Part shown: positions 19,579-58,156 of the stretch, piece after piece
How the letters are laid out: the number at the start of each line of letters is the position of its first letter
How positions within the stretch are numbered: position 1 is the first letter of the stretch
IMG/VR virus record: IMGVR_UViG_3300001687_001195
Span: 1 to 64,000 of that record
Reading direction: 5' to 3' (one strand)
Length of the DNA stretch: 64,000 nucleotides
From: a virus
Lineage: Duplodnaviria; Caudoviricetes
Notes under the pieces: model-generated
Told to the model about the DNA's origin: nothing
Databases searched by the model: none
Seen by the model: the letters and a program-made list of their open reading frames with translations, nothing else
Program-made: the position numbers and the translations under genes

Positions 19579-20943
19579 ATGAGAACGGTTGAAGACCTGA
19601 AGAAAACGGTAGCGGGCATCAGAGACGCTGCCGGAAGGGTTTCAAGCCGTGAGAACGTGGAGAAGATGGCGCACGACCTTCTCGCGGCTTCAAGAACCCA
19701 TGCTGATGAACTTCGTAAAGGCCAGTACGCGGCCATGGATAGTCATGAGGAAATCTTCAAGAGCGCCAACGATCCTGAAGAATTTCTGACGACTGTTCCG
19801 ATGGAGCAGGAGGCGAAAGAGTTCCACAAGTGGCAGGATGACGTGCTCATCATGACCGCTCTTCTCACGAAGACGCACCCCATTGTGGAACGTCCAGATC
19901 CAAGATCATTGAAGACGTGGCGACGTGGTGAGAGACGATTCGCAAAGTTCATTAAGGCGATGAGCGATACAGCCGGATCCGGGCAAGATTGGATTCCGAC
20001 TCTGTTCTCTTCGCAGTTGATCGACACCTTCCATCTTGCGCAGCGAGTTGAAGGCTTGTTCGATGCGATTGACCCGATGCCGAGTGATCCTTTCAAGATT
20101 CCGATCGTTTCTGCGGACGGGTCGATCAAGATCATCCCGGAATCTACCATTGACAATGCGACCAAGATTTCGGCTGCTACGCCGGGTACCAGCAACATTA
20201 CGCTGGAAACGACCAAGCTCGGTATTCGGATGGTGTTCTCGGAGGAATTGAACGAGGATTCCATCATTCCGATCATGCCATTCTTGCGTAGGAAGCTTGC
20301 GCAGAACATGGCGATCGGCGTGGAAGATGCATTGCTCAATGGCGATCTTTCGACAACGCACATGGATACGGACGTGACCGACAGTGTTGACCCACGGAAA
20401 TCGTGGAATGGGCTTCGTGCTTTGTCGTGGGATGTCAACGCGGCCGGTACTACTACGTGTCTGGACATAGGTGGCGCACAGCTTCAACTTGTGCATGTGC
20501 GTACGGTTCGCGGATACCTCGGCAAGTACGGTGCCGATCCGATGAATCTTGTCTATATCACGTCTCCTACAGGCGCTCTTCAGTTCATGACGCTGGACGA
20601 AGTGCGTACGGTTGACAAGTATGGCCCGAATGCCACCATCCTGACTGGCGAGATCGGGAAGGTGGATAACATTCCGGTGCTCCTCTCCGAAAAGATTCGT
20701 GAAGATCTGAATGGCAGCGGTTTCTATGACAGCACCGCCACGGATAAGACGATGTTCCTTTGTCTTCTTCGTACGGCGTTTGCTGTCGGAACCCGCCGTC
20801 GCATGACTCTCAAGACTTTCACGGATATTCAGACGGATCAGCAAATCTTGGTGGGGCTTACCCGGAAAGATTTCAAAACCTACTATCCGGGTGAACCTGT
20901 CGTGGCCCAGGGATATGACGTGCCGAACGCTCTCACGTCGTAG
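19579..20943 (+). CDS. Major capsid protein (HK97 fold)
   Basis: SGQDWIPTLFSSQLID, TLETTKLG..FSEELNEDSII, EDALLNGD, VDNIPVLLSE; strongly biased codon usage; position. Confidence 0.9.
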   Translation: MRTVEDLKKTVAGIRDAAGRVSSRENVEKMAHDLLAASRTHADELRKGQYAAMDSHEEIFKSANDPEEFLTTVPMEQEAKEFHKWQDDVLIMTALLTKTHPIVERPDPRSLKTWRRGERRFAKFIKAMSDTAGSGQDWIPTLFSSQLIDTFHLAQRVEGLFDAIDPMPSDPFKIPIVSADGSIKIIPESTIDNATKISAATPGTSNITLETTKLGIRMVFSEELNEDSIIPIMPFLRRKLAQNMAIGVEDALLNGDLSTTHMDTDVTDSVDPRKSWNGLRALSWDVNAAGTTTCLDIGGAQLQLVHVRTVRGYLGKYGADPMNLVYITSPTGALQFMTLDEVRTVDKYGPNATILTGEIGKVDNIPVLLSEKIREDLNGSGFYDSTATDKTMFLCLLRTAFAVGTRRRMTLKTFTDIQTDQQILVGLTRKDFKTYYPGEPVVAQGYDVPNALTS

Positions 20944-21012: not shown

Positions 21013-21642
21013 ATGACACTGTGGTTATGTTTTTCTATCTACAACGAAGCTCCACATATACGCGATTATTTACTACGGTGTAAATGTGCAGCACCACATG
21101 CAAAAGTCATTGTTGTAGACGGACGATATGATCCTTTTCCTGGAGAAAGCTTTCATTCTGATGATGGTACTTTAGAGATCGCACGCGAGTTGGCTGATGT
21201 GGTGATCGAATGCCCGAATGGACGACCATGGCCGAATGAAGAAGTAAAACGAACTGCTTACTTCAAGGTTGGGGAGAATGGCGATGAGTATCTGGTCGTT
21301 GATGGGGATGAGGAAATCATAGGTTCCGTATCACCGCAATTGCCATCGGCATTGGATGCAAATGTCCAATTGCACCGGGATACGGGACAAAAGCCGTACC
21401 CGGTGTTTCGCTATCATAAGCATGATGATGATCTGAAAGTTCATGGGCATCACAATGCGATTTGGAGACGCGGAATACACATTCCACGTAAGAAAAGCCC
21501 GGTATTTTTACAGCGTGATGTAGGATTTGCTCTTCTTCATCATACGCGTATTCGAGAACCTGAAAGACAGCAGAGGAAGAGTCATTACTATCGGTGGCTA
21601 TCGGACAGGGAACGCAGTTTTAGAGCTATTGTTGGAGAATGA
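21013..21642 (+). CDS. GT2/GT-A glycosyltransferase
   Basis: SIYNEAPHI, VIVVDG..SDDGTLEIA, NEEVKR, YLVVDGDEEI (DxD), later HN and HH. Confidence 0.75.
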   Translation: MTLWLCFSIYNEAPHIRDYLLRCKCAAPHAKVIVVDGRYDPFPGESFHSDDGTLEIARELADVVIECPNGRPWPNEEVKRTAYFKVGENGDEYLVVDGDEEIIGSVSPQLPSALDANVQLHRDTGQKPYPVFRYHKHDDDLKVHGHHNAIWRRGIHIPRKKSPVFLQRDVGFALLHHTRIREPERQQRKSHYYRWLSDRERSFRAIVGE

Positions 21643-24298: not shown

Positions 24299-25366
24299 AT
24301 GCCGGATGCCGGACTTGGAAACAAATCATACGCCGGTCTCAACTTTGAGACAGCTTGGGGAACGAAAAATACCGATCTTACGCAATTTGAAGGTGTGGCT
24401 ACGGGGTTAAAACCCTGGATCGACATCAACAGTGAAACATTGACGGTGGAAGAACGTCCGCTGCGTAGTGCTTCGTTGACTGGTATTGGCCCGCTATACA
24501 ACAAGATCGCACCAGGACCGAGAGGGATTACTGGAGATATTGTTTGGACACCGAATTACGATTCGGAAACCATTCAACGTTTGTTCCGAGCAGCGATGGG
24601 GTTTTATCTCAATGTAGGTAACAATGAGATTCAGTACCGTCCAGATGACAAACTTCCAGCGGTGACTGCAGAAGTCCATCTCGACAAAACGGCCGTGCGT
24701 TTCTATGGTGGTTCAGTTTCTCAGCTTCGCGGAACCGTATCTCCTGATAGTTTCTTCGATATTACGGCAAGTTTCATCTTCAAAGATTTTGATGAAATTG
24801 CCTATGTCGATTGGAAGACAGTCTCATTCGATGGCACAAACAGGGATACGTTGATTCGCTCTGATCATCTTTCGATTGCGCGATTCACACCCGAAGGTGG
24901 AAGCAATATCGACATTGCCAGTGTACGTGATTTCGAGTTCTTCTATGACAATCGATTGAACCCAGATCGTCGCGTTCTCGGGTCACGGTTGATCAAAGAA
25001 CCTGACCGTACTGATCGATTGGCTACTGGTGGTCGCGCTGTACTTGAGTTTGACGATGCAACGCTGTTCTATCAATTCTATACACAGACTGTGGGACAAA
25101 TGATTTTCAAGTTCGACTCTGGAGAAGGAACAGCTTCCAGCGGTACGAACTTCAGCATCATTTTCGATTGGCCGCGTGCGCGAATTGCCACGGGCACCCC
25201 CACGGTAAACGCTTTCGGTATCATCACTCTCGAAGTGGAATGGGAAGGATTGCAGGGAGTAGATGGTGATTTCGGGACAGATGCAGCGTTGATTGCTACG
25301 ATCATTAACAATTCTCAACTTGCTGCGAATGCACAGCCTGCTAACTATACGTCCTGGACTCCATAG
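24299..25366 (+). CDS. Tail tube protein paralogue 1 (probable major tail protein)
   Basis: GLNFETAWGT, ETLTVE, ITGDI, DDKLPAVTAEV, DNRLNPDRRVLGSRLIKEP, GTPTVNAFGIITLEVEW. Confidence 0.75.
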   Translation: MPDAGLGNKSYAGLNFETAWGTKNTDLTQFEGVATGLKPWIDINSETLTVEERPLRSASLTGIGPLYNKIAPGPRGITGDIVWTPNYDSETIQRLFRAAMGFYLNVGNNEIQYRPDDKLPAVTAEVHLDKTAVRFYGGSVSQLRGTVSPDSFFDITASFIFKDFDEIAYVDWKTVSFDGTNRDTLIRSDHLSIARFTPEGGSNIDIASVRDFEFFYDNRLNPDRRVLGSRLIKEPDRTDRLATGGRAVLEFDDATLFYQFYTQTVGQMIFKFDSGEGTASSGTNFSIIFDWPRARIATGTPTVNAFGIITLEVEWEGLQGVDGDFGTDAALIATIINNSQLAANAQPANYTSWTP

Positions 25367-25392: not shown

Positions 25393-26526
25393 ATGACGCT
25401 CGATCCTCTGTCTGGTCGCTCGACATACGCATTGATTGAATTGGAGACCGAGTACGGTCAGCGACCATCTCCATTCCCCGGTACTACACACCAATACGTT
25501 CATTTTACGAGTGAAGATTTCGATAAGCGAATGGATAATCTTGTTTCTCCGAGGTTATCATCTGAACGAGTACCATGGACGCGAGTATACAGAACGAATC
25601 AATATGTTGAAGGAACGTTGATTTTTGAATTGGGGTATAAGGGTGCTGAATTACTTCTACAAGCCGCGTGGGGAGAACGCAAGACTACGAACTTTGCGAG
25701 AAACCAAGCTCCTGAAGTTTACAATCATCTTTTTTTGACGGCTGCTGATTTGCCTTCTTTCACGATGGAGGTTGGGTTTGGCAAAAGAGCATTGCAATTG
25801 TATGGTTGCGTGATTAACACGATTACCTTAACAGCATTGTCGATGGGATTCGTGGTTTGCAAATTAACGGTTGTGGCGCAACGTGCGGAATTGTTTAGAG
25901 TACCAAGTGCTGAAGTGCCGGTACGCACTCCTGTAATACACGATCAAATGATTACGGGTACACATCATGGCGGGATGATTCTGATTTGGTACTCTGAATC
26001 GCCTGGTACGGAAACATACATTCCTTCGCTATCTTCCTTTGAAGCTACACTAGATAATAAACTTCGTATTGCTTATCCGCTTGGTAGCGATTTGATGAAG
26101 AAGCCTGCGCGCGGAGACTATCGGCAAGTCTCTGGACGATTTGTTGGGGAGTTCAATGACCCGGCATTCGATGCATTTCGTCATTATTCATCTGCACAGA
26201 AATGTGTGTGGATACAGTATGCGACGAATGGCGTGAATGTACCTATCCCAACTGGCCCTGGATCTAATCCAAATGGAAATGTTCCTGGCTATGATTTCAC
26301 GATTGAATATAGAGGCAATAAATTAGATCTTCGTTCGGCTACTCCGAAGATCATGGATACGGGTGTAGTCATTTTGGATGTTCCGTTTGAAGGGTACTAT
26401 GATGTAAGCGGAACGCAAAGCCCGCCGAACCCTCCGGAATTGTTGTGGAATGATGAACCATTCATTTTTAGGACGCAGAATGATTTGAATGGTCTTCTGT
26501 TGTCCGCTTTGCAGAGAAGTACTTAG
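25393..26526 (+). CDS. Tail tube protein paralogue 2
   Basis: LIELETEYG, VEGTL, ADLPSFTMEVG, LYGCVINTITL, LDNKL..LGSDLMKKP, ATPKIMDTG..LDVPF. Confidence 0.75.
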   Translation: MTLDPLSGRSTYALIELETEYGQRPSPFPGTTHQYVHFTSEDFDKRMDNLVSPRLSSERVPWTRVYRTNQYVEGTLIFELGYKGAELLLQAAWGERKTTNFARNQAPEVYNHLFLTAADLPSFTMEVGFGKRALQLYGCVINTITLTALSMGFVVCKLTVVAQRAELFRVPSAEVPVRTPVIHDQMITGTHHGGMILIWYSESPGTETYIPSLSSFEATLDNKLRIAYPLGSDLMKKPARGDYRQVSGRFVGEFNDPAFDAFRHYSSAQKCVWIQYATNGVNVPIPTGPGSNPNGNVPGYDFTIEYRGNKLDLRSATPKIMDTGVVILDVPFEGYYDVSGTQSPPNPPELLWNDEPFIFRTQNDLNGLLLSALQRST

Positions 26527-26536
26527 GAGTGATGTC

Positions 26537-27127
26537 ATGGAGCGTAAACCATCCCCAAAGCCCGAAGGAATTGAATCGGATGCACAAGCATCCATGATGC
26601 AGCAGTTGCGGGAAGTTGATCCGGAGATCGCAAAGAAGGGAATGCCGCTTAAGCCAGTTGCCGAGGCGGCAAGGCCACCGGAAAAACCTGTGGAACAGAA
26701 ATCAGAATTGGCGGTTTTAACAGGGCGATGCGTTTGGGATACCGAAACAGAAATGTGGACGGATCGCTTTGGCAAGAAACATGGAATCCATGTCTTAGAC
26801 TTTGGGGATCTTGGTGAGTTTGAGCGGCGCCATGGTGAGTTGAATAAAGCATTTGAAGACAAAGACAATCAGTTGAATCTGATGCTTACCCTAACTTGGC
26901 TGGCCATTCGTAAGGAAGGATGTTCGGATGATGATTTGGATCATGAACGATTCAAATACACACGTCCGGCTGTTGGCCGCATGTTTGGGATTAATGATGG
27001 AGCCGTTCTGGTACGTGTTGCCATGAATGTTCTCAAGGCAAGTGGGATGGACATCGATGTAGATGACCTGGGAAACCAACTGGAGGCGGGCGAAGAGGAA
27101 GAGCAAGCGCCCGCCGAGGACTCCTGA
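26537..27127 (+). CDS. Tail assembly chaperone (gpG-like)
   Basis: SD AGGAG; acidic C-terminus; slippery site near the end; tail-module position. Confidence 0.65.
   Translation: MERKPSPKPEGIESDAQASMMQQLREVDPEIAKKGMPLKPVAEAARPPEKPVEQKSELAVLTGRCVWDTETEMWTDRFGKKHGIHVLDFGDLGEFERRHGELNKAFEDKDNQLNLMLTLTWLAIRKEGCSDDDLDHERFKYTRPAVGRMFGINDGAVLVRVAMNVLKASGMDIDVDDLGNQLEAGEEEEQAPAEDS
27070..27076 (+). promoter_or_regulatory. -1 ribosomal frameshift slippery heptamer G GGA AAC
   Basis: X XXY YYZ in the correct frame of the chaperone; the -1 frame stays open to 27267. Confidence 0.75.
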
Positions 27128-27279: not shown

Positions 27280-28383
27280 ATGGGGCTCGGCACGCCAACT
27301 ACAGTGACGCCGCGCCAAGGCCGCGATCTTTATGTAATTATCAAAAGGGAAGAAGAGTATGGGGTAGTTCCCGATGATTTTTACATAGATGCGGTGTACT
27401 TGGATGCATCTGGAGAAACGATTCAACTTGCCCGCGAAAATCTGTACTCATCAGGAGTTCGCGGGCATGGTCATAAATACAATAGGGTCGTAAGCGGAGC
27501 AGCAGGTATTTCAGTTGGCGGGGACTTTCTATCTGACATACAGTACAAAGGTCTTGAAACACTTTTGTACGGTGCGCTCGGTGGATGGGCCTACGCACAG
27601 CCTGATCCAACCAATTCTCCTACCGTGTATAGTCATGCCTTTTACCCGGTAGATGATTTACCATCGTTCACAATTGAGATTGGTAAGGGGAAACAAGTAG
27701 GCGCCGGATTCCGCTATACAGGGATTATGGTCAATTCATTGACTCTTGGTGTCTCTGCAGATGGATTTTTGACAGGAACGTTCGGTCTGATCGGAAAAGA
27801 TGTCGAAGCGATTAACCCTACTACGGGGTATGCGATCACGTATGAACAACTTGTAAATTCTACTCATTTGGTGACGATACGATTCATTGATATTACTCAA
27901 ATTGTGAAAGACATCAGTGCAATTGTTGGGTACGCGGTGTCGATTGACAATCAACTTTCAAACGATCGTCGTTTTTTGGGAAGTGCCAATATTCAGAAGC
28001 CACAGCGTACAGACAAACGCAAAGTCAATGGCCGTATTGTGATGGAAGTTGGAGATGAAATTGTAGATGCGTTTACATCTTTCTATTATGGCTACCGACA
28101 TGACATCTTACTGAATTTTTTGGGTACTACTATTGATGGCATCTTTAACAAGAGTTTCAGCATTCGTACATTCCGTACTGAGTTTCGTGGTGGAACGCCT
28201 TCTGTGGTAAGTGCAGGGCGCCAACATGCTGATGTTCCGTTTGATTGCTTCTCCGATACGATTGAACCAATCCCTCCTAACTTTACCTTTGATGGGGAAA
28301 TTCTTTTGGGCATGACGAATGATCAAGTGCCGCCTGCTTATGCAACGAGCATAGGTGATTTTGACGAAGACTTTGCTTTCTAA
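27280..28383 (+). CDS. Tail tube protein paralogue 3
   Basis: IIKREEEYG, VGGDF, DDLPSFTIEIG, YTGIMVNSLTL, IDNQLSNDRRFLGSANIQKP, GTPSVVSAG..DVPF. Confidence 0.75.
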   Translation: MGLGTPTTVTPRQGRDLYVIIKREEEYGVVPDDFYIDAVYLDASGETIQLARENLYSSGVRGHGHKYNRVVSGAAGISVGGDFLSDIQYKGLETLLYGALGGWAYAQPDPTNSPTVYSHAFYPVDDLPSFTIEIGKGKQVGAGFRYTGIMVNSLTLGVSADGFLTGTFGLIGKDVEAINPTTGYAITYEQLVNSTHLVTIRFIDITQIVKDISAIVGYAVSIDNQLSNDRRFLGSANIQKPQRTDKRKVNGRIVMEVGDEIVDAFTSFYYGYRHDILLNFLGTTIDGIFNKSFSIRTFRTEFRGGTPSVVSAGRQHADVPFDCFSDTIEPIPPNFTFDGEILLGMTNDQVPPAYATSIGDFDEDFAF

Positions 28384-48629: not shown

Positions 48630-48983
48630 ATGTCAGACCGTATTACGATTTTGCGGGGCAATAAAAAAGATTTTGTTCTTTCATTAAAACAAAACGGTGT
48701 TGCCTATACAGGGTTGTCTGGCGTGGAGAAGGTAACGGTAGCTATTGGACCCTCCGGTAGTAAAACTACAAATGCCATATTGTACAATAATATAGATCAT
48801 CCGACAAAGGTTGAAATAGATATACCGGAAGTGGGAGATGTATTTGTTCACCTGTCTTCGTTAGATACAGATTTGGAGTTAACTGAGTATGATGTAGCTG
48901 TACAGTGTAAATTGGATCAGACAAATAATGAGGAATGGGAAAAAGAGAGCGCTATTTTAGTGAAACAAGATCGAATAGTGTAA
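48630..48983 (+). CDS. BppU-N-like adaptor protein
   Basis: ILRGNKKDFVLSLKQNG..LSG pattern. Confidence 0.5.
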   Translation: MSDRITILRGNKKDFVLSLKQNGVAYTGLSGVEKVTVAIGPSGSKTTNAILYNNIDHPTKVEIDIPEVGDVFVHLSSLDTDLELTEYDVAVQCKLDQTNNEEWEKESAILVKQDRIV

Positions 48984-48994
48984 TGGAGAAGAAC

Positions 48995-49234
48995 ATGAAA
49001 AAGCTATCTGTTGTTTTGTTGCTCATGATCGCTCTGACAGGATGTACATCTTGTACTAAGGGGTACGTAAAGGCAAGCGAGATCGAACCGATGGTAGACG
49101 CTGTGGTAGAGCGTCACAATGGATATATCGACAAGGGGAGTGAAACGGATCCGGCGCGTGCCGAGACATTCAAGAACGAAGCGAATGTGCTGAAGGCGGC
49201 TGTGAATACGGCTGCGAAGGGAGGCAATAAGTAA
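48995..49234 (+). CDS. Lipoprotein
   Basis: MKKLSVVLLLMIALTG-C lipobox. Confidence 0.7.
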   Translation: MKKLSVVLLLMIALTGCTSCTKGYVKASEIEPMVDAVVERHNGYIDKGSETDPARAETFKNEANVLKAAVNTAAKGGNK

Positions 49235-49585: not shown

Positions 49586-49786
49586 ATGAATGCAGCAGCA
49601 TATGTTGACATCATCAAATGGAGTATCTTAGGCGTTTTGGTGGTCGGAACCATTGTTCTGATTGCAATGGAACGCCTTAGTGTGGAGGGCGCGATTGCTT
49701 TGGTCACGGGTATTGCTGCCATCTTCATCGGCGGTAATGTGTTGAGCAGCAGACTTCGCAATGGTGCGCAGCCGCCCAAGCCATGA
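49586..49786 (+). CDS. Two-TM small membrane protein (holin candidate)
   Basis: Two hydrophobic helices and a basic C-terminus. Confidence 0.5.
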   Translation: MNAAAYVDIIKWSILGVLVVGTIVLIAMERLSVEGAIALVTGIAAIFIGGNVLSSRLRNGAQPPKP

Positions 49787-49819: not shown

Positions 49820-49891
49820 GCAGGGGCGGAGTCTATTTGGTCTGAACCGCCGTGTGGTTCCCTGCGGCGTTCGCTCTGCCCCTGCTGTTTT
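49820..49891 (+). promoter_or_regulatory. Long imperfect intergenic hairpin followed by TGTTTT
   Basis: GCAGGGGCGGAG (49820-49831) pairs with CTCTGCCCCTGC (49874-49885); inner GAA-C-CGCCG/CGGCG-TTC stem. Confidence 0.55.
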
Positions 49892-49904
49892 CGTGGAGAG
49901 ACGC

Positions 49905-50585
49905 ATGAATGAGCTAACGCCACCTGTTCTCGATTGGACCACGGCGCCCGCCTTCGGTCGTACAGAAGCCCTTAAAAAGACTCTGGCACTTTTGTCGGAG
50001 CGCCTTCCTCAAGAGCGCGATTTCAACATTGTCGAAGTGGGTACTGCCTATCGGTACGACCTGAATGAATTAGGCAATGCCATTTTGGCGTTTGCCTGGT
50101 TTGCTTCCACTTTTGGCGGTAAAGTGTACATCTTTGATCCGCTTCAGCCATCCATAAAGAGTGCTCAGGACATTTTGAGGCAGCATGGGAAGCCACATGC
50201 ATGCATAGATCATTGTTTCTGGTTTCAGATGAGCGGATGGAAGATCAGGGAAGTTTTGCCACCGAATTTGCGGATTCCGATCGACTTAATCTATCTGGAT
50301 GCCTTTATTGGCCCAACAAATCACAACGTTTGTAAAGAGCCGAATACTGACAAAAACGAGTGGTATGACGAGTTGTACACACGGATCAAACATCTTTTTG
50401 TGCCGGGGTCGCTACTTCTCATTGATGATACCAATCCGACAAACTTTGACGGCAAGGGCTGCACATTGATCCCGAGGCTACTGCGGGATGGGGACTGGCG
50501 CAGGATCGGCCCAGAAGAGGGCTTCCCGGCGGCTGCAGCCATGGTTCTCATGGAGAAGCGATCCCATGGAGAAGGGGGAGATTGA
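49905..50585 (+). CDS. Class I SAM-dependent methyltransferase-like protein
   Basis: IVEVGT, GKVYIFD, IDLIYLDA, LLLIDDT..GKG. Confidence 0.7.
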   Translation: MNELTPPVLDWTTAPAFGRTEALKKTLALLSERLPQERDFNIVEVGTAYRYDLNELGNAILAFAWFASTFGGKVYIFDPLQPSIKSAQDILRQHGKPHACIDHCFWFQMSGWKIREVLPPNLRIPIDLIYLDAFIGPTNHNVCKEPNTDKNEWYDELYTRIKHLFVPGSLLLIDDTNPTNFDGKGCTLIPRLLRDGDWRRIGPEEGFPAAAAMVLMEKRSHGEGGD

Positions 50586-50760
50586 ACGGCTCCTGACGGA
50601 CGCAGACTTCGTGTTGGTGATCCGGACGCGGAGAGGGAATTTGGTTTTACAGGGAGAGCTATCGAAAAGTTTGTGGGATACCTATGGGGATCAAGTTGGA
50701 GTGGATCATGTGATTCGACAGCTTCGGGCAAGTTTGCTATCGAAGGTAAACATAAAGTGA
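50566..50760 (+). CDS. Hypothetical protein
   Basis: Overlaps both neighbours in coupled fashion. Confidence 0.5.
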   Translation: MEKGEIERLLTDADFVLVIRTRRGNLVLQGELSKSLWDTYGDQVGVDHVIRQLRASLLSKVNIK

Positions 50761-51605
50761 CTGTTCCATATAAACCGATTTTCTTCGTTGGTAACAAGCG
50801 ATCTGGTACGACGCTACTTACATATATGTTGAATCGGCATCGAAAGATTTTCATTCTGAATGAGGGAGGGATTCTATGGCGGCTAATCAATCCAGAACGC
50901 ACGTATCAAGTAAATCATACTGATGTGCGCGAAAAATGGATGTGTAGCCGCTTTCATGATCTGCCAGAAGATATTCGTGAAGCATGGTTCATCGTTTTGC
51001 TTCGATTCTTGACGCCAGCAATTGTAGGCATTACCGAAGACTATGCAGAAAAAGATCCTACTAATCTCGAATATATTGGGGACAAAGTACCAGATCTACA
51101 TTTGAACCCTACAATGCTAGAAGCAATGCAGGAGTACTTTCCGGATGCGTACTATATCCATATGGTTCGACATCCAGTGAGATGTGTTGCGTCGATGTGG
51201 GGTACGTTTTGGAAAGGTGTGTATAAGTACGCTGCGTATGGTGGTGAACGAGAAGATAATATTATACGGGGATTAAATTCAATCGCAGATGTGGCGCGGC
51301 ATTGGGTTAACTTGGAACAAAGAACGCTGCATTTCTTGTCTGCTATACCGGAAGAGAGAGTAATATTCTGCCGATATGAAGATCTTTGCGATGATCCTGT
51401 AGGACAAATAAGCAAACTATTTGTTCAATTGAAATTAGATCCAGAAAATTTGGATGAACAAAAACGCGGTGGTACTGGTACGCCTGAATATGCGAGACAA
51501 TTTCGTTGGAAATCTGCTCAAGTTCCTGCGGTAGACGGTCTGAGAGAGCTTGCTGAAGCATATGGGTACGTAGATCCACTGTTGGAAAAAATGGTAACAG
51601 GATAA
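50757..51605 (+). CDS. PAPS-dependent sulfotransferase
   Basis: PIFFVGNKRSGTTLL (5'-PSB loop), IGDKVP, IHMVRHPVRCVASM (3'-PB), RYEDLCDDP. Confidence 0.9.
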   Translation: MTVPYKPIFFVGNKRSGTTLLTYMLNRHRKIFILNEGGILWRLINPERTYQVNHTDVREKWMCSRFHDLPEDIREAWFIVLLRFLTPAIVGITEDYAEKDPTNLEYIGDKVPDLHLNPTMLEAMQEYFPDAYYIHMVRHPVRCVASMWGTFWKGVYKYAAYGGEREDNIIRGLNSIADVARHWVNLEQRTLHFLSAIPEERVIFCRYEDLCDDPVGQISKLFVQLKLDPENLDEQKRGGTGTPEYARQFRWKSAQVPAVDGLRELAEAYGYVDPLLEKMVTG

Positions 51606-52054
51606 TGAGACTCAATCTTGGGTGTTCAGATCGTCATTTGGCGGGATTTGTAAATGTAGACATTGTTCCACCTGCCGATGAACTTGTGGATTTGACGAAG
51701 CCGTGGCCTTGGGGGGATGATTCGGTATCATTGATTGAGGCGGAAGATATTATTGAACACCTGCCGGATAAAATTCACACGATGAATGAAATCTGGCGTG
51801 TGCTTTGTCCAGGGGGAGATGTAAGGATCAGCGTTCCGACTACGGATGGTCCGGGCGCTTGGCAGGATCCCGGTCATGTCAGCTATTGGAATCGGAACAG
51901 CTTTTTGTACTACACCGATGGAGACCCGCATTTCACGCGCTTTCATGCAGGATACGGGATCAAGGCACACTTCGCTGTAGTATCGGAGAGAAAATGGGTC
52001 GGAGCGAATCAAGTGCCAAAGCTCGATATTTGTTTGCGCGCAGTCAAGCCGTAA
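51605..52054 (+). CDS. Class I SAM-dependent methyltransferase (type 11-like)
   Basis: RLNLGCS..FVNVD, DLTKPWPW.DDSV, IEHL, EIWRVLCPGG, DPGHVSYW. Confidence 0.85.
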   Translation: MRLNLGCSDRHLAGFVNVDIVPPADELVDLTKPWPWGDDSVSLIEAEDIIEHLPDKIHTMNEIWRVLCPGGDVRISVPTTDGPGAWQDPGHVSYWNRNSFLYYTDGDPHFTRFHAGYGIKAHFAVVSERKWVGANQVPKLDICLRAVKP

Positions 52055-52257
52055 TCGAGGTTGATTTCTTCCAAGGCGAGTTTGAACCTATCAAACCGCA
52101 AGGAAGAGAAGCAGCACGGTTGTTTAAGACGGTACCAAAACAATCGCGTAAATGCTATGGGGCAGACGCGGAATTGCGTGAGCAAGCATTACAGGCGCAC
52201 ACAAAGCGCATACAGCGGGAATTGAAAAATCGAAAAAGAAGAAAACGCAAAAAGTGA
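51994..52257 (+). CDS. Small basic hypothetical protein
   Basis: Fills the gap; Lys/Arg-rich C-terminus; start uncertain. Confidence 0.4.
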   Translation: MGRSESSAKARYLFARSQAVIEVDFFQGEFEPIKPQGREAARLFKTVPKQSRKCYGADAELREQALQAHTKRIQRELKNRKRRKRKK

Positions 52258-52258
52258 C

Positions 52259-52873
52259 ATGTCGAATCTTTCTTTAAGTTTTCGAGAAGCTCCAGAGCAC
52301 GGACGGCAAAGAACGATCCATGAGACATTGCATATGCTTTATGGACAAACGAAAAGTCCAGTGATTCTGGAAATTGGATCTTCGATTGAGCATAATCCTA
52401 GAAATTTAGGCAATCTCACATTGTTATTCAGTTGGGTATGCGATCAGTATGGCGGAGATTTCATTACTTGTGATGTGAGAACTGATACTTGTCTTTTTGT
52501 ATCCGCTTTAATAGAAAAATACCTTGGTAAAGTTCCAACGTCAACGCGTATTTTTCAAATGAGCGGTTTGCAAATTGCTAATGTGTTACAGCAGAAAGTT
52601 GATCTTCTTTATCTGGATGCGATGGATGAAGATTACGCGGATTATCTGCAAGAGAACGACCATAACAATTTTTGGTATTTACGTGTATTCCAGATTTTGA
52701 AAGATCATTTGTCAAGTAACGCTATGGTGCTTATCGATGATACATGGAAAGGAAAGCTTCGTTTTGAAGGGAAAGGAAAGCTGTTAACTCCATTCCTTAT
52801 CAACATGGGGTGGAAAATGTATTTTGGAACTTTGGATAATCCATATCCGCAAGTGCTTTTGGTAGCACCGTAA
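52259..52873 (+). CDS. Class I SAM-dependent methyltransferase-like protein, paralogue of 49905-50585
   Basis: ILEIGS..LGN..LF.W, VDLLYLDA, VLIDDT..FEGKG. Confidence 0.7.
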   Translation: MSNLSLSFREAPEHGRQRTIHETLHMLYGQTKSPVILEIGSSIEHNPRNLGNLTLLFSWVCDQYGGDFITCDVRTDTCLFVSALIEKYLGKVPTSTRIFQMSGLQIANVLQQKVDLLYLDAMDEDYADYLQENDHNNFWYLRVFQILKDHLSSNAMVLIDDTWKGKLRFEGKGKLLTPFLINMGWKMYFGTLDNPYPQVLLVAP

Positions 52874-53637
52874 TGAATGAATTTGCGATAGTAATTCCCT
52901 CTAAGTATGCGATGAACTTAGTTGGATGTATGCAAGCTATCTGCGATTTTGAAGTCAACGTAGTAGAGTCGGAAAAGATCATTGTAGTAGACGATGGCGC
53001 TAGAGCGGAACTGGAGCGCGATGGGTTTGGAGTACCGTTATGGTTTGAGAGGCTTCAATGGATTTCAGGAGCGGAGCCTTTCAGTTTTCCGCGTAATGTG
53101 AATTTGGGTGTAGCGGCAGCAGGTACGCGGGATGTATTGCTACTGAACGACGATTGCATGTTACGCACGCCTGCTGGTTTCTATCGAATGCAGGAAGCGG
53201 CGTATTCAGACCCCGATATTATGATGTGCGCGGCAATTGTTAGTTTTTCTGGGAATCGAACGCAGCAAGCTACTCCTGCTCAAGCAACTGCAGCGATGAA
53301 TCATGCGAACGATGAGATCATCCCGCAGGAAATGGTTTGTTTCATTTGTGTGTACTTTAAGCGGGAATGCTTCGATCGTTTTGGCTTATTTGATGAAGCA
53401 TTCGATGGGTATGGTTGGGATGACGACATCTATTGTGCGCGTGTGAGAACAGGTGGAGGTAAGATTGTAGTGTATCGAGGTACTTATCTCGATCATACTC
53501 ATTTGCAATCGAGCTATCGGGTACGTGAACGGGATACTTTAGGGCCGCGCAGTCGTCAGAATCGTGTGAAGTATGATGCTTTGATGAAACAACATCCGGA
53601 GTATTTGGAATGGCTATCACGCAGGAAAAACCATTGA
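52873..53637 (+). CDS. GT2 glycosyltransferase
   Basis: AIVIPS, IIVVDDG, FSFPRNVNLG, LLLNDD, FDRFGLFDEAFDGYGWDDD. Confidence 0.88.
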   Translation: MNEFAIVIPSKYAMNLVGCMQAICDFEVNVVESEKIIVVDDGARAELERDGFGVPLWFERLQWISGAEPFSFPRNVNLGVAAAGTRDVLLLNDDCMLRTPAGFYRMQEAAYSDPDIMMCAAIVSFSGNRTQQATPAQATAAMNHANDEIIPQEMVCFICVYFKRECFDRFGLFDEAFDGYGWDDDIYCARVRTGGGKIVVYRGTYLDHTHLQSSYRVRERDTLGPRSRQNRVKYDALMKQHPEYLEWLSRRKNH

Positions 53638-55340
53638 GAGTTCTGATTTTTGGCGCTTCGGGGATCATTGGGCAGCACATGATGCTGACTCTTCCATGGA
53701 ACGTGAAGCCATTGTATGCGCGATTTAGACTTAGCGATTCATTTCGAGGAAGATTTACTATTCTTGATGTAACGAATTTTGAATGGGTGGAAGCAATCAT
53801 TAAATCATTTAATCCAGATGTGATTGTGAATTTAGCTGGTGAGAATAATGTTGATACAGTCGAGCGAGAGCCAGAACGGTGGCGGGCGGTAAATGTAGAA
53901 TTTCCATCACGTCTTGCCGAATATTGTTGTTTAGCACCGCGCATTGATTTGATTCATGTCAGCACGCAGGGAATCTTTGATGGTAAAGAACCTCCGTATG
54001 CGCCTTGTGTTTATCACGGCGATCCGGTTAATGCATACGGATGCCAGAAATTGCTAGCCGAGCACCGTGTAATGAGCGCAAACCCACAAGCGGTAATCGT
54101 TCGTCCGACATTTGTTCTCGGGGTACGCCCAATGGTTACTTGTGGGCGCCATAATCCTCTTGAGCAAATGTTTGAAATGGATGAACAACTTCAAGTAAAT
54201 GATCGGTACTTTTCGCCTGTCATGGCTATCGATGTTGCCGAAGAGATTTGGAATCTGTGCTTTGTTTTAGGTAATGTAGGGTATGGGCATCCTAATGACT
54301 ATGTAAGGGGCGCGATCTTTCATGCTGGATTGCCGATACGGACTACGCGTTATGACTTAGCTATCAGAGTAGATGCGTTGGAAGAATCCGTATACCGTAA
54401 GATCGAAGCAGTACCTCATTCGCACTTCAAAGGGATTGCAGAACGCCCAAAAGACACAACATATGTCGATGATGGTAAGGATTCCAGTGGGGTATCAACT
54501 TCTCTGCATATGAATCATGAGAATGCTTTGCAGATAGGACTATTGCACGCTATGGACCAGATGGACGCGCGTAATGATCTATTTTCTGAAGTGGGCTTTG
54601 CGGAAGACATTGCTTTGTTTCTTGGCCATTCGTACGATTGGGTGCTACATGAATTGAAAAATGGGTTTCAACACTTTCATGCGGAAGTAGCCAACGATTT
54701 CAGGGAGTACGTATTAGATTACACTCAAGAAGAGATCTTGGCATGGTATAAGCGAACAGAAGCATACATTTGGGAATTGGCTTGCTTTCAGCAAGATTGT
54801 TCTGGTTTTAATTACCGAGGTATGTGTAGGGGTATCATGGAAACTCTTTCTGCACATCTTCGGGGGGATTCTTCGACATTCAAAGATGTGCTAGTTCTTG
54901 GGGATGGAATTGGTACACTTTCATTATATCTGATCCAAAACGGATTTGATGCGCACTACCATGATCTTCGGGAAAGCAGGACCGCAGCGTTTGCGAGTTT
55001 CCGAGCAAAGCGTAGAGGCATTGGTCTTCGATACTTTTGGGCGAAGGAAGGAACATTCATTCCTGCTTTTGATGGTGCTAAAAAGTTCGATTGCATTCTT
55101 GCTCTCGATTACTTTGAGCATTTGCCCAATGTTGTCGAATGGTTACATGCTGTCTATGCCATGCTGAAGGATGGGGGTAGATTCATGGCGCGCAATGCTT
55201 TTGCTCAAGGTAGTGGAATTACTGGATCTATTCCATGTCATTTACCTGAAACCGATCATTTTGTATCTGATTGGGATGCAGCGTGTAAAAGAGTGGGATT
55301 TCAACACGAAATCAATGAATGGTACATAAAGAAATCGTGA
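53610..55340 (+). CDS. rmlD: RmlD-like NDP-sugar reductase (SDR) fused to a C-terminal class I methyltransferase
   Basis: GASGIIG, VIVNLAG..VD, HVST..FDG, YGCQK (YxxxK); C-terminus VLVLGDGIG, FDCILALDYFEHL, LKDGG. Confidence 0.85.
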   Translation: MAITQEKPLRVLIFGASGIIGQHMMLTLPWNVKPLYARFRLSDSFRGRFTILDVTNFEWVEAIIKSFNPDVIVNLAGENNVDTVEREPERWRAVNVEFPSRLAEYCCLAPRIDLIHVSTQGIFDGKEPPYAPCVYHGDPVNAYGCQKLLAEHRVMSANPQAVIVRPTFVLGVRPMVTCGRHNPLEQMFEMDEQLQVNDRYFSPVMAIDVAEEIWNLCFVLGNVGYGHPNDYVRGAIFHAGLPIRTTRYDLAIRVDALEESVYRKIEAVPHSHFKGIAERPKDTTYVDDGKDSSGVSTSLHMNHENALQIGLLHAMDQMDARNDLFSEVGFAEDIALFLGHSYDWVLHELKNGFQHFHAEVANDFREYVLDYTQEEILAWYKRTEAYIWELACFQQDCSGFNYRGMCRGIMETLSAHLRGDSSTFKDVLVLGDGIGTLSLYLIQNGFDAHYHDLRESRTAAFASFRAKRRGIGLRYFWAKEGTFIPAFDGAKKFDCILALDYFEHLPNVVEWLHAVYAMLKDGGRFMARNAFAQGSGITGSIPCHLPETDHFVSDWDAACKRVGFQHEINEWYIKKS

Positions 55341-55341
55341 C

Positions 55342-55797
55342 ATGGGTTATGACCCTCAGTATCGCATTACGATTGCTCATTCGCGGATAGGCACCAAAGG
55401 ATCGGATGGGAAGCCAAACGGATTTTTGGTACCCATTTGGAATGAGCATGAACCTTGGGAAGCGTTGTCTCCAAAGCAGGTGTACTTAACAGTTGTTGCT
55501 CCGCATACGCATAAGGGACCGCATCTTCATTACAAGCGTAATGGTGCTTTTACATGTATTAAAGGGAATGTGCTCGTCGTTCAACAGAGAGGTTTGGGAA
55601 AGATCGTCTATGTGGAGACATGGACAGGCGAAGATCACCTTTATCAGACGATTTTTGTTCCAGCGGGTATTGCAGCAGCAATGTATAACCTCGGTGATGA
55701 AGATGCTTATGTATTGAACATGCCGTGTCGTGGGTACTGTGCTGAAGACAAAGATGAATGTGTACCGGAGAAATGGGATTATGCCCCGTCGTTTTGA
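55342..55797 (+). CDS. RmlC/WxcM-like cupin sugar epimerase/isomerase
   Basis: QVYLTVV..KGPHLH..FTCIKG, IFVPAGIA..YNL. Confidence 0.75.
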   Translation: MGYDPQYRITIAHSRIGTKGSDGKPNGFLVPIWNEHEPWEALSPKQVYLTVVAPHTHKGPHLHYKRNGAFTCIKGNVLVVQQRGLGKIVYVETWTGEDHLYQTIFVPAGIAAAMYNLGDEDAYVLNMPCRGYCAEDKDECVPEKWDYAPSF

Positions 55798-56647
55798 TCT
55801 TGGCATTGCCAGTTACGCTAACTTTGAGAAGCTGCATAGAACAGTAGCCACTATCCGAAGGCAATGTGTCACGGATTGGCGTTTGTTAATCGTAGATAAT
55901 CCAAGTCCGCAATCGGACCAGATTCGTAAATGGATCTGTGCGCAGGGAGATCAAGAACCTCGTATCAGCGTGGTAATGAACGAGGAAAATCGCGGATATG
56001 CAGGCGCAGTAAATCAGATTCTTGAATGGGCAGAGACAGAGTACATTGGTTATTGCGATAATGATGTAATGATCGATACGAGGGCGTGGGATGAATCTCT
56101 CTGTTCATTGCTTGATAGGCATCATGAGGTAGGAATGGTGTTTCCAAATGGAGGCGCCTTTCCAATTCATCGCGGAACATACACAGAAGTCTTGTGGGGC
56201 ATTGGTTTCTGTTGGGTAATAAATCGCATGGCATTTCGGCGTGTGGGGGGTTTTGATGAAGCGATTGGGCATCAAGAAGAAGCAGACTATTGTATGCGTA
56301 TGCGGATGAAAGGATACCGCTGTGCTTCTCTTGGCGATGTGCGGGTACGTCATGACGCAACGGCTACAAAAGATCCGAAGGCTCTAGAACGCATCAATGC
56401 TGGAGTAGAGCGTTTTGTAACCAAATGGAATCGGTACTTTAATGGAGAGGAATACCACTATCATCATCCGTATGTAACTCGATGGGAAGACTGGCCTCCG
56501 AATGCATTGTATTTGGAGCAATTCTATCGAACACATCTTGGCGATAAGTTTAACGAGAATCCTGAACTGATTACGCTTGCAGGGCGCAAGTTGGATTTGA
56601 TCAAGGTTCCTCGATTTTTCCAGATGTACAGAAATAGAATCATCTGA
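55781..56647 (+). CDS. GT2 glycosyltransferase (rhamnosyltransferase-like)
   Basis: LLIVDNPS, EENRGYAGAVN, YCDNDV, VGGFDE..EEADYCMR. Confidence 0.88.
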   Translation: MPRRFDLGIASYANFEKLHRTVATIRRQCVTDWRLLIVDNPSPQSDQIRKWICAQGDQEPRISVVMNEENRGYAGAVNQILEWAETEYIGYCDNDVMIDTRAWDESLCSLLDRHHEVGMVFPNGGAFPIHRGTYTEVLWGIGFCWVINRMAFRRVGGFDEAIGHQEEADYCMRMRMKGYRCASLGDVRVRHDATATKDPKALERINAGVERFVTKWNRYFNGEEYHYHHPYVTRWEDWPPNALYLEQFYRTHLGDKFNENPELITLAGRKLDLIKVPRFFQMYRNRII

Positions 56648-57420
56648 TGAAAACTGAATCATTAGAAGGTCTTGATGTCATTGTAGTGTATGTGGGCATC
56701 TTGGCTGGCGATCTCTGGATGAGTCTTACAGGTCTTCGTGATTTCCTGAAGAAAGATCTATCTGTAGGACTTGTTGTAGGAACTTACACACGTCCTATAT
56801 GGGACTTTGCATTGGAGCATGTGAAGGGATTGGATGGAGTACGCATCATTGGTCAAATTGCGGATCCAGACGAGCATAACCATCCATTTTGTCCGGGTAA
56901 AGGCTTTCATGCATTAGTTCCAGCGTACGATTATGTGAAGACACAACTAAAAGAGCGTTTTGACGAAGAGAAAATTCTTCGTTTTGATACACCTGGCAAT
57001 AGCTATGGAACAAAGCGGGACAAATTAGAGTTGAAGTCAGGTGCCTTGCGCAACGATGACCGTGTAACTCTACATGGGTATACACGGCATGGTTGGAAGA
57101 ATTGCGATTTCGTTGTATACCGTGCTGAGTACAATTTACCCACGTTTCAAGTGGGTTTTGCAGATGAGCCTGCATGGCCTTCAGGGCGCCTCCCGGCAAG
57201 ACCGTATAGTGAGATGGTTTTGAGTATGTTGCATGGAAGGGGTCTTGCTACTGTGCTGTCTTCCTTTAATTGTATAGCAACCGTGTTTCACAAGCCTGCA
57301 GTTGTAGCTTCCTATACCTCAGATTGTAAATGGGTGAATTACACAAACCCAAACGCACTTGTAATGGTTACACCTTCGATACGCCAATTCCAAGACGCAG
57401 TAAGTACGATGGGATGGTAA
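56647..57420 (+). CDS. GT9-like (GT-B) glycosyltransferase
   Basis: N-terminal GILAGDLWM (GxGD-like); C-terminal SSFNCIATVFHKPAVV resembling DSGxxHxAxAxxxPxV. Confidence 0.5.
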   Translation: MKTESLEGLDVIVVYVGILAGDLWMSLTGLRDFLKKDLSVGLVVGTYTRPIWDFALEHVKGLDGVRIIGQIADPDEHNHPFCPGKGFHALVPAYDYVKTQLKERFDEEKILRFDTPGNSYGTKRDKLELKSGALRNDDRVTLHGYTRHGWKNCDFVVYRAEYNLPTFQVGFADEPAWPSGRLPARPYSEMVLSMLHGRGLATVLSSFNCIATVFHKPAVVASYTSDCKWVNYTNPNALVMVTPSIRQFQDAVSTMGW

Positions 57421-57424
57421 AGTA

Positions 57425-58156
57425 ATGCGATTTCTGGCAATGCTCAGGATTCGTAATGAGGAACGCTGGATAAAGCGAGTCATAGATTCTTTGCTTCCCA
57501 TTTGCGCAGAGTTGTATGTAATGGATGACCATTCTTCAGATACAACGGCAGACATTGTATTGGCTTTTGACAAAGAACGTGTTCACTATATACCGTCCCC
57601 TTTTGCTAAAGACGATTTGGATGAATCTAGGGATAAGAATTTTCTATTGGATTACGTGATTTCTGGCAAACCAGATTGGGTTTTATGTATTGACGGAGAT
57701 GAAGAACTTGAAGAGATGGGACCGGACATCATTCGAGAAACCGTAAAAACTCCGCAATGGCATAGCTATTCGTTTAGAGTCATTTATCTATGGAATAGTG
57801 AGCAAACGATTAGAGTAGATGGCGTGTACAAAACGTTTGCACGTCCTTCAATGTTTCGGATGGTGAACCCTGCATTTCGGTTCAAGACAACGCCATGGGG
57901 CGGTAATTTACATTGTTCTTCAATTCCACAAGAACTTCTTCATGGATACCAGCGTTGTTCAGTTCGTTTGAAGCATTATGGTTACATTGATCCTGAGTTA
58001 CGTCGGAAGAAATTTGATTGGTATAACAAGGTTGACCCAGACAATACAGGAGAAGATTGCTACCGCCATATTATTCAAGGGGATCCAGGCGGTCCTACTC
58101 CGGATGTAAAGTTGAAATGGGCCGGACCCTTAAAGCTTGAATCTTGGGTAGAGTGA
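57425..58156 (+). CDS. GT2 glycosyltransferase (SunS/SpsA-like subtype)
   Basis: RIRNEERWI, VMDDHSSDTTADI, DESRDKN, WVLCIDGDEEL, RLKHYGY. Confidence 0.88.
   Translation: MRFLAMLRIRNEERWIKRVIDSLLPICAELYVMDDHSSDTTADIVLAFDKERVHYIPSPFAKDDLDESRDKNFLLDYVISGKPDWVLCIDGDEELEEMGPDIIRETVKTPQWHSYSFRVIYLWNSEQTIRVDGVYKTFARPSMFRMVNPAFRFKTTPWGGNLHCSSIPQELLHGYQRCSVRLKHYGYIDPELRRKKFDWYNKVDPDNTGEDCYRHIIQGDPGGPTPDVKLKWAGPLKLESWVE

Follow-up and report, generated by a model that had tools for sequence, protein, structure and literature searches.

To our knowledge, glycosylation of phage virions has been shown only for a few mycobacteriophages carrying small sets of glycosyltransferases (GTs). The virus (Duplodnaviria; Caudoviricetes) of IMG/VR record IMGVR_UViG_3300001687_001195, which is 80,107 bp long and has all its genes on the plus strand, encodes an enzyme set that is far more elaborate and has evidently been under selection. 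The window analysed here comprises the first 64,000 nucleotides (64 kb) of this record, and the enzyme set is encoded by ten genes between positions 49905 and 58156. The core of this cluster belongs to a large family seen only in uncultured phages, and of all versions of this modular, phage-specific glycosylation cassette encountered here, the cluster is the richest. We moderately favour the view that it attaches a 6-deoxyhexose glycan, methylated and possibly sulfated, to proteins of the virion.

Virion glycosylation in mycobacteriophages is the functionally closest case. There, soluble GTs (Che8 gp110, Corndog gp38, Myrna) were shown to glycosylate capsid and tail-tube subunits (summarised in PMC12363180 and PMC12619734). 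The phage studied here likewise encodes soluble GTs in an accessory cassette which is present in some lineages only, with a target that is deduced from the genes. It differs in that the cluster also contains enzymes for the finishing of nucleotide sugars, four methyltransferase domains and a sulfotransferase, and in that the cassette hosts appear to be diderm or unknown rather than Actinobacteria. A tblastn search with GT2b, the hallmark GT of the cassette, against 50,697 GenBank phage genomes including mycobacteriophages (E ≤ 1e-5) gave no match, and homology to the characterised mycobacteriophage GTs was not detected; the same search with a second cluster enzyme, GT2a, returned only 11 weak partial matches, none of them in mycobacteriophages.

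In chlorovirus PBCV-1, A064R and A061L carry out cytoplasmic addition of L-rhamnose followed by 2-O and 3-O methylation on the major capsid protein (PMC9614988). The GT-methyltransferase fusion of PBCV-1 is comparable to the fusion of an RmlD-like reductase with a methyltransferase (MT) and to the GT/MT pairing observed here, although PBCV-1, a eukaryotic giant virus, has an N-linked glycan without sulfation, proteins that show no sequence relationship and a different fusion architecture. The glycan clusters of Megavirinae contain sulfate-metabolism genes (Ma457/Ma461 of Moumouvirus australiensis and R499 of Tupanvirus; PMC9614988). As in the phage, the combination of a glycan cluster with sulfate-related genes suggests sulfated virion glycans, sulfation being predicted from genes in both cases; the Megavirinae, however, encode sulfate activation (SAT/adenosine-5′-phosphosulfate (APS) kinase), whereas the phage encodes a transferase without APS kinase.

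Three further systems are comparable in part. The glycocin S-glycosyltransferases SunS and ThuS and GmaR, the latter being the flagellar glycosyltransferase of Listeria (PMC3150276), are GT-A enzymes glycosylating polypeptides directly in the cytoplasm. A phage GT encoded outside the cluster (capGT) comes closest to them by fold and GT2b by profile, but the phage enzymes are about 15% identical to them and lack TPR and other C-terminal substrate-recognition regions. The RmlA-D pathway and CapF resemble the phage system in that a reductase with retained cofactor and catalytic motifs is paired with a cupin, corresponding to the last two steps of 6-deoxyhexose synthesis; unlike in the RmlA-D pathway, RmlA and RmlB were not found in the record, the cupin is FdtA/CapF-like rather than RmlC, and the reductase is fused to an MT. 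The seroconverting GtrABC and Oac are phage-encoded sugar-modifying enzymes as well, but these are membrane proteins of temperate phages which act in the periplasm on O-antigen, whereas neither a polytopic membrane protein nor an integrase was found here. In the literature, we found no paper on this cassette, nor on a phage sulfotransferase within a glycan cluster.

Organisation and conservation of the gene cluster

The ten co-directional genes encode 11 catalytic domains and occupy about 10% of the 80-kb record. Seven of the nine gene junctions overlap or are at most 4 nt wide, and the remaining gaps measure 171 and 204 nt. A preliminary description of this DNA had proposed about 12 coupled genes following a tail/lysis block. 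The coupling was borne out and the count is corrected to ten, while domain, motif and fold assignments confirmed the proposed inventory: three GT2-type GTs, one GT9-like protein, four S-adenosylmethionine (SAM)-methyltransferase domains, a sulfotransferase of the 3′-phosphoadenosine-5′-phosphosulfate (PAPS) type, a cupin, here of the FdtA/CapF type, and an RmlD-like reductase (Table 1). The tail block upstream is evident from a tape-measure protein of 1,877 aa and fibre-like genes, whereas the lysis assignment obtained no confirmation from hidden Markov models; neither PHROG nor Pfam detected an endolysin or holin family among these genes. The cluster is flanked on both sides by phage genes of the same strand, namely the tail and putative lysis genes before and a primase gene after it. 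Scanning the 41-60.5 kb region for promoters and terminators gave no better result than scanning shuffled sequence.

The contigs L021 and L022, which originate from other samples, carry tail, primase and small genes 30-58% identical to those of this phage. The block of L021 is collinear with the cluster, and the nine shared genes show protein identities of 37-73%: MTa 58% (57.6%, with the first gene of the L021 cluster), the sulfotransferase (ST) 37% at the same position, MT11 55%, GTw 48%, RmlD-MT 44%, the cupin 53%, GT2a 69% (68.6%), the GT9-like protein 44% and GT2b 73%. In both phages, GT2b is followed by the same small open reading frame (ORF) and then by the primase gene. As this relative keeps the same genes in the same order, the cluster is a real, selected unit and not a chimeric insert. 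The opposite case envisaged in the preliminary description, a non-conserved insert with closest homologues in a bacterial lipopolysaccharide (LPS) or capsule locus, does not agree with the phage-borne homologues and the conservation in L021.

The one extra gene of this phage compared to L021, which carries a single MTa/b copy, is MTb; it is located behind the 204-nt spacer (52055-52258), which resembles a scar left by duplication or insertion. Across the spacer runs the tail of an ORF (51805-52257) whose end is rich in lysine and arginine. This ORF was considered as an eleventh gene and rejected as probably spurious: it is out of frame with MT11, which it overlaps, and L021 contains no homologue of it.

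Table 1. Coordinates of the predicted glycan cluster and of further genes discussed in the text.
Feature	Position	Strand	Assignment and evidence
MTa	49905..50585	+	class-I SAM-methyltransferase fold; no Pfam match; AF2 model pLDDT 75.6
ST	50757..51605	+	PAPS-type sulfotransferase; Sulfotransfer_3 2.1e-24, 87.4 bits (cut-off 27); Sulfotransfer_1 1.3e-7
MT11	51605..52054	+	small SAM methyltransferase; Methyltransf_11 3.6e-4, barely above cut-off; PHROG methyltransferase 1.1e-7
MTb	52259..52873	+	MTa paralogue (29% identity, E 8e-19); phrog_24975 4.8e-18; no Pfam match
GTw	52873..53637	+	GT-A/GT2-like; Glycos_transf_2 0.003, below cut-off; PHROG glycosyltransferase 3.3e-5
RmlD-MTc	53610..55340	+	RmlD-like NDP-4-keto-6-deoxyhexose reductase fused to MTc; 576 aa; RmlD_sub_bind 2.3e-33
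Cupin	55342..55797	+	NDP-4-keto-6-deoxyhexose epimerase/isomerase, FdtA/CapF type; FdtA 8.1e-6, 26.1 bits (cut-off 23)
GT2a	55781..56647	+	GT2 glycosyltransferase; Glycos_transf_2 4.9e-17
GT9-like	56647..57420	+	Rossmann protein, GT-B-like; 257 aa; ESM-Atlas features and structure only
GT2b	57425..58156	+	cassette hallmark GT-A; Glyco_tranf_2_4 1e-7
capGT	21013..21642	+	GT-A glycosyltransferase; directly after major capsid gene, outside cluster
Tail-tube paralogue 1	24299-25366	+	full-length; Phage_tube_2 (PF18906), phrog_290
Tail-tube paralogue 2	25393-26526	+	full-length; Phage_tube_2 (PF18906), phrog_290
Tail-tube paralogue 3	27280-28383	+	full-length; Phage_tube_2 (PF18906), phrog_290
Family-A DNA polymerase	870-3260		polymerase with 3′-5′ exonuclease and in-frame C-terminal uracil-DNA-glycosylase-superfamily domain (Pfam 9e-82 and 3e-31)
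Lipobox protein	48935-49234		small; lipobox LTGC; directly upstream of cluster
66-aa protein	49586-49786		two hydrophobic segments; directly upstream of cluster

Enzymes encoded by the cluster

The closest solved relative of ST is the CurM sulfotransferase (1.7e-11), to which both PAPS-binding motifs (KRSGTT and VRHP...S) could be aligned, and the motifs GNKRSGT and VRxP...S are invariant across the only three known homologues of ST. Family signature and the motifs for the 5′-phosphosulfate and the 3′-phosphate are both present and predict a PAPS-dependent sulfotransferase. A large protein database contained only two ST homologues, tblastn against GenBank phages and IMG/VR gave no match, and a Sulfotransfer_3 gene was found in none of 50 other cassette-bearing viral records. 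ST is an add-on specific to this lineage.

Foldseek comparison of the MTa model yielded at least 500 methyltransferase matches with TM values of about 0.55, all of them class I and including MnmM, the sugar 3-O-methyltransferase MeT1 and O-methyltransferases of the COMT type; PDB sequence searches with 49854-50585 and with an MTa profile returned nothing meaningful. Homologues of MT11 with 33-61% identity occur in 32 cassette loci. The fourth domain, MTc, is the C-terminal Methyltransf_12 (6.6e-8, residues 430-525)/Methyltransf_23 part of the RmlD fusion protein.

The RmlD-like protein matches solved dTDP-4-dehydrorhamnose reductases, and its reductase domain scores 115.9 bits with RmlD_sub_bind versus 34.9 bits with GDP_Man_Dehyd. 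The motifs GxxGxxG, STxxxFDG and YxxxK, representing the cofactor site and the S/T-Y-K triad, are readable in its sequence. RmlD and MTc are fused or adjacent in all 25 loci having RmlD, being separate genes in some lineages. The cupin additionally matches the C-terminal cupin of Cap5F (0.011) and has no match to the canonical RmlC family PF00908, a member of which takes its place in cassettes of the L002 type. On the L002 contig itself (JGI 3300042691, 78 kb), the variant cassette comprises RmlD, MT, GT2, canonical RmlC, MT, an unknown gene and a Glyco_transf_17-like gene; a gene of the S-adenosylmethionine decarboxylase family lies before it and a VanY/PG-binding endolysin after it. The enzymatic part of the earlier proposal of a methylated, sulfated, rhamnose-type glycan is thus supported by domains, motifs and fold, but not the identity of rhamnose: the sugar is predicted to be a 6-deoxyhexose, and "rhamnose-type" cannot be narrowed further.

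Among the GTs, GTw, with GT2b a universal member of the cassette, is present in 51 of 62 loci, mostly immediately upstream of GT2b. GT2a is presumably a 6-deoxyhexosyl transferase, because it occurs together with RmlD and MTc in 25 of 25 loci. For the GT9-like protein, sequence searches of Pfam, PHROG and PDB gave no match. Its Atlas features score 0.95-0.96 to viral clusters, one of which is 32% PF01075, and its structure shows TM values of 0.68 to a 252-aa GT9 cluster and of 0.66 to a pyruvyl-transferase cluster; with 257 aa the protein is short for a full GT-B. Orthologues occur in L021, L029, L032 and L069.

The family profile of GT2b matches GmaR (1.9e-8), ThuS (1.2e-5), SpsA (3e-4) and SunS (1.7e-3), which makes GT2b a candidate for a protein-priming glycosyltransferase. 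The AF2 model of capGT (pLDDT 87.6) has the S-glycosyltransferases SunS and ThuS as top PDB matches (E 4e-7, TMq 0.63-0.65), and 30 of 30 Atlas feature matches are viral GT2 sets. The capGT family has nine members with invariant VDG, S-DGT and D-DEE motifs, and the position behind the capsid gene is kept in the relatives L010 (70% identity) and L011 (50%). A 204-aa GT2 following the capsid gene of L024 was considered as a counterpart of capGT and rejected. Although BLASTP between capGT and GT2b was not significant, profile-profile comparison with hhalign gave a probability of 91%, suggesting that the two are distantly related. Judged by the fold of capGT and the family profile of GT2b, these two GTs most resemble enzymes which glycosylate proteins or peptides directly. 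All five GT genes of the phage, including capGT, encode proteins without transmembrane helices.

Distribution and genomic position of the cassette

The core cassette has the modular composition MT11-GTw-RmlD-MT-cupin-GT2a-GT2b. IMG/VR holds 55 cassette loci, and GT2b has at least 554 metagenomic homologues at about 50% identity on contigs of up to about 93 kb. The grammar of the cassette was derived by tblastn of the proteins of this phage against 62 loci. In 17 further loci, the order MT11-GTw-RmlD-MTc-(cupin)-GT2a-GT2b is preserved. About 30 loci carry a minimal GTw-GT2b form, to which MT11 may or may not be added, and an insert of MTa/b and the GT9-like gene was found in three. A DNA search of the block for near-identity among GenBank phages gave no match. 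Scanning 185,579 bacterial and archaeal species genomes with one GT2b pattern revealed a single locus, the prophage-like L080 at the end of a 193-kb Acidobacteriota contig (metagenome-assembled genome of Ca. Sulfopaludibacter, CAMDED010000001.1, 174596-193089). Its genes are arranged as TerL-portal-protease-capsid-MT11-GTw-GT2b-...-tape-measure, and this locus supplies one host link for the cassette family. No tailed-phage cluster of this kind had been recognised in the preliminary description; this impression does not hold for the core, which is widespread in uncultured phages, and only the sulfotransferase is specific to the lineage.

The search of viral contigs for the cassette beside HK97 head genes, suggested at the same time, had a positive outcome. 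Pfam recognises an HK97-type capsid gene in the fetched DNA of 16 loci; in 15 of them, the first cassette gene begins 0.6-2.8 kb downstream of it and on the same strand. L024 shows the order TerL-portal-protease-capsid-[cassette]-head completion-tail, and in L023 the cassette lies immediately before the tail chaperone and tape-measure genes. Other positions are after the terminase (L031, L033) or after a helicase (L078). As these loci are partly non-independent, with L039/L040 and L049/L050 as near-duplicates, and as accessory genes are known to land behind capsid genes, we regard this placement as supportive, not decisive.

Capsid proteins encoded beside the minimal cassette end with G[ST]F[STN][ST]SP(A) in L037, L039, L049, L057, L061, L068, L073, L077 and L080. 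A Ser/Thr-rich C-terminal tail of the form G[ST]F[ST][ST]SPA was considered as a marker of the cassette and rejected, as similar, less Ser/Thr-rich tails are found in the cassette-free phages HK544, PP9W2 and phiL7; the tail is at most suggestive. In this phage, the C-termini of capsid and tube proteins read ...ALTS, ...TSWTP and ...QRST, from which no conclusion was drawn.

Proposed pathway and nature of the acceptor

Within 80 kb plus 10 kb upstream no polytopic membrane protein was found, only the tape-measure protein exceeding two hydrophobic segments; a flippase, a polymerase, an initiating transferase, an ABC exporter and a Gtr-type protein are therefore excluded within the 90 kb examined. 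A six-frame search of the record for RmlA (PF00483) gave no match, while the control found PF00483 in 14 of 14 genomes, and for RmlB no second short-chain dehydrogenase/reductase (SDR) was present among the ORFs scanned, the sole SDR of the block scoring as RmlD. As both were missing, the nucleoside diphosphate (NDP)-4-keto-6-deoxyhexose would be drawn from the host, and as no APS kinase was found in the record, the same would apply to PAPS. Six-frame searches of the 80-kb record for hydroxymethylase (PF00303), Tet/JBP (PF12851) and cytosine-5 methylase (PF00145) also gave no match. These results agree with the earlier remark that no flippase, Wzy polymerase or base-activating enzyme is visible.

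In the following pathway, the acceptor and the sugar, the sequence of reactions and the placement of sulfate on the glycan are inferred from the gene set. All enzymes of the cluster would be soluble and produced inside the infected cell, to which the host would contribute NDP-4-keto-6-deoxyhexose, formed by RmlA/RmlB-type steps, and PAPS. The cupin would epimerise or isomerise the keto-sugar, and the RmlD-like domain would reduce it to an NDP-6-deoxyhexose (rhamnose, 6-deoxytalose or similar). A GmaR/SunS-like GT-A, i.e. GT2b and/or capGT, would place the first sugar on a structural protein of the phage; the capsid is the likeliest target, with tail-tube subunits as a further possibility. The chain would then be extended by GTw, GT2a as the likely deoxyhexosyl transferase and the GT9-like protein, O-methylated by the four methyltransferase domains and sulfated by ST.

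Soluble virion proteins, which the preliminary description had already favoured as acceptors, gain independent support as predicted acceptors from the absence of polytopic membrane proteins and of base-activating enzymes in the DNA examined, from two GTs resembling protein/peptide glycosyltransferases, from the capsid-adjacent homologues, and from the phage-borne nature of the homologues and the conservation of the block in L021. Several points weigh against a virion acceptor. SunS, ThuS and GmaR are only remotely similar to the phage GTs (about 15% identity, TMq 0.63-0.65, E 1e-8 to 1e-3), GT-A enzymes switch their acceptor class easily, and peripheral soluble GTs can act on lipid-linked host glycans, too. 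The space behind the capsid gene is a common site of highly expressed accessory genes, so that position alone names no acceptor, and in this phage the cluster lies between tail/putative lysis genes and the primase gene, outside the head module. Ser/Thr-rich capsid tails are non-discriminating, as HK544 and PP9W2 carry them without a cassette. Finally, the record is estimated to be only 62% complete, and absent genes could lie off the contig.

A rather unlikely alternative is remodelling of the host envelope: soluble enzymes at the inner membrane face would modify lipid-linked intermediates of LPS, exopolysaccharide (EPS) or capsule, or wall polymers, and a methylated or sulfated deoxyhexose might, for example, block superinfection or stop virions from re-adsorbing to debris. 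GTs for bacterial O-antigen and EPS are mostly soluble or peripheral GT2 enzymes as well, JGI labels of homologues read "involved in cell wall biosynthesis" and "O-antigen biosynthesis protein", TarP and TarS, which are wall-teichoic-acid enzymes, are among the fold matches of capGT, and the phage relies on host pools of nucleotide sugars and PAPS. Envelope remodelling is, however, difficult to reconcile with the missing initiating phosphoglycosyl transferase, flippase, polymerase and Gtr-type membrane protein, none of which was found in the phage, nor with the failure to find an integrase, seroconversion being typically a trait of temperate phages. Moreover, the cassette is nearly absent from bacterial genomes and embedded in head/tail modules of unrelated phages, and the best sequence matches of its hallmark GT2b are protein/peptide glycosyltransferases.

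Another soluble acceptor is also considered unlikely: a non-virion protein of phage or host (receptor, flagellin or defence protein), a small molecule or a free oligosaccharide. For the hallmark GTs, the closest solved relatives use peptides and flagellin as acceptors, CurM as the closest solved relative of ST acts on a polyketide intermediate, and in this phage the block adjoins replication genes. Such an acceptor would leave the recurrent placement behind capsid genes unexplained, and ten genes appear a heavy investment for one regulatory target; genes for a carrier protein, a polyketide synthase or nonribosomal peptide synthetase or a precursor peptide were not found in the block.

Hypermodification of DNA, with the GTs decorating hydroxymethylated bases of the phage genome, is highly improbable. 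Phage GTs which glycosylate DNA with diverse glycans are known (bioRxiv 10.1101/2023.12.21.572611) and the block borders the replication module, but neither the hydroxymethylase nor the Tet/JBP dioxygenase or cytosine-5 methylase was found in the record, the uracil-DNA-glycosylase (UDG) domain of the polymerase suggests ordinary thymine DNA, and homologous cassettes reside in head modules. An artefact or cargo, be it an LPS/capsule locus captured from bacteria, a chimeric assembly or a piece of host DNA in a mis-trimmed provirus, is largely refuted and has a negligible likelihood in our view, as the provirus label and 62% completeness given by IMG/VR and the GC content of the block (44.8% versus 48.1% for the genome) are opposed by the identical phage sequence assembled independently in JGI, ENA and two Logan runs, by the collinear block in a second phage from other samples, by same-strand phage genes on both flanks, by the same-strand ORFs without Pfam matches in the 12 kb trimmed upstream and by GT2b being essentially without bacterial homologue.

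The large uncultured family to which the core belongs suggests that particle glycosylation may be common and chemically diverse (deoxy, methyl, possibly sulfate) in environmental phages. One can tentatively go further and speculate that a phage-only, Lego-like system without cultured representative, consisting of a GTw-GT2b core and optional deoxysugar, methylation, GT9-like and sulfation modules, decorates capsids and tails and here produces the first sulfated, O-methylated deoxyhexose glycoprotein coat to be described for a bacterial virus. Such a coat would alter the surface charge and the interactions with receptors, defence systems or grazers. If real, it would bear on phage adsorption, stability and recognition by hosts, grazers and immune systems, would be relevant to phage-surface engineering and would offer a source of compact soluble enzymes for glycosylation of proteins and for methylation and sulfation of sugars. 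Testable handles are provided by the likely priming GT, the likely deoxyhexose-transferring GT and the required host precursors. The present case contributes a cassette family with a modular grammar, a collinear relative showing selection on the sulfotransferase, a split arrangement in which one GT gene lies apart, next to the capsid gene, and explicit tests of the rival explanations with negative outcome.

Genome context and further observations

The record carries the replication genes for a PolA-UDG fusion, RecA, clamp and clamp loader and the structural genes for a portal protein, an S78 protease and an HK97-type capsid protein, the last encoded at 19579-20943. With at most 26% identity of its portal protein to any GenBank phage, the phage is remote from these. 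A search of IMG/VR with the portal protein found no close relative; relatives were located by searches with capGT, the capsid gene and the sulfotransferase. No tRNA was found in the record. The provirus label is doubtful and the phage is probably lytic, the trimming being artefactual, because same-strand ORFs continue upstream on the parent JGI contig (92 kb) and a search for a tyrosine/serine integrase or resolvase found none.

Directly upstream of the cluster, the lipobox protein and the 66-aa protein with two predicted transmembrane segments are plausible spanin- and holin-like lysis genes; the lipobox protein hints at a diderm host. The three tail-tube paralogues represent possible additional acceptors of the glycan. 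Between the second and the third of them, a tail-chaperone-like ORF is located at 26489-27127. A cultured, D3-like phage of Pseudomonas, PP9W2 (NC_074662.1; L083 4037-4104), carries an annotated GT-B directly after its head-closure gene, which may be another head-module glycosylation gene, in this case in an isolate.

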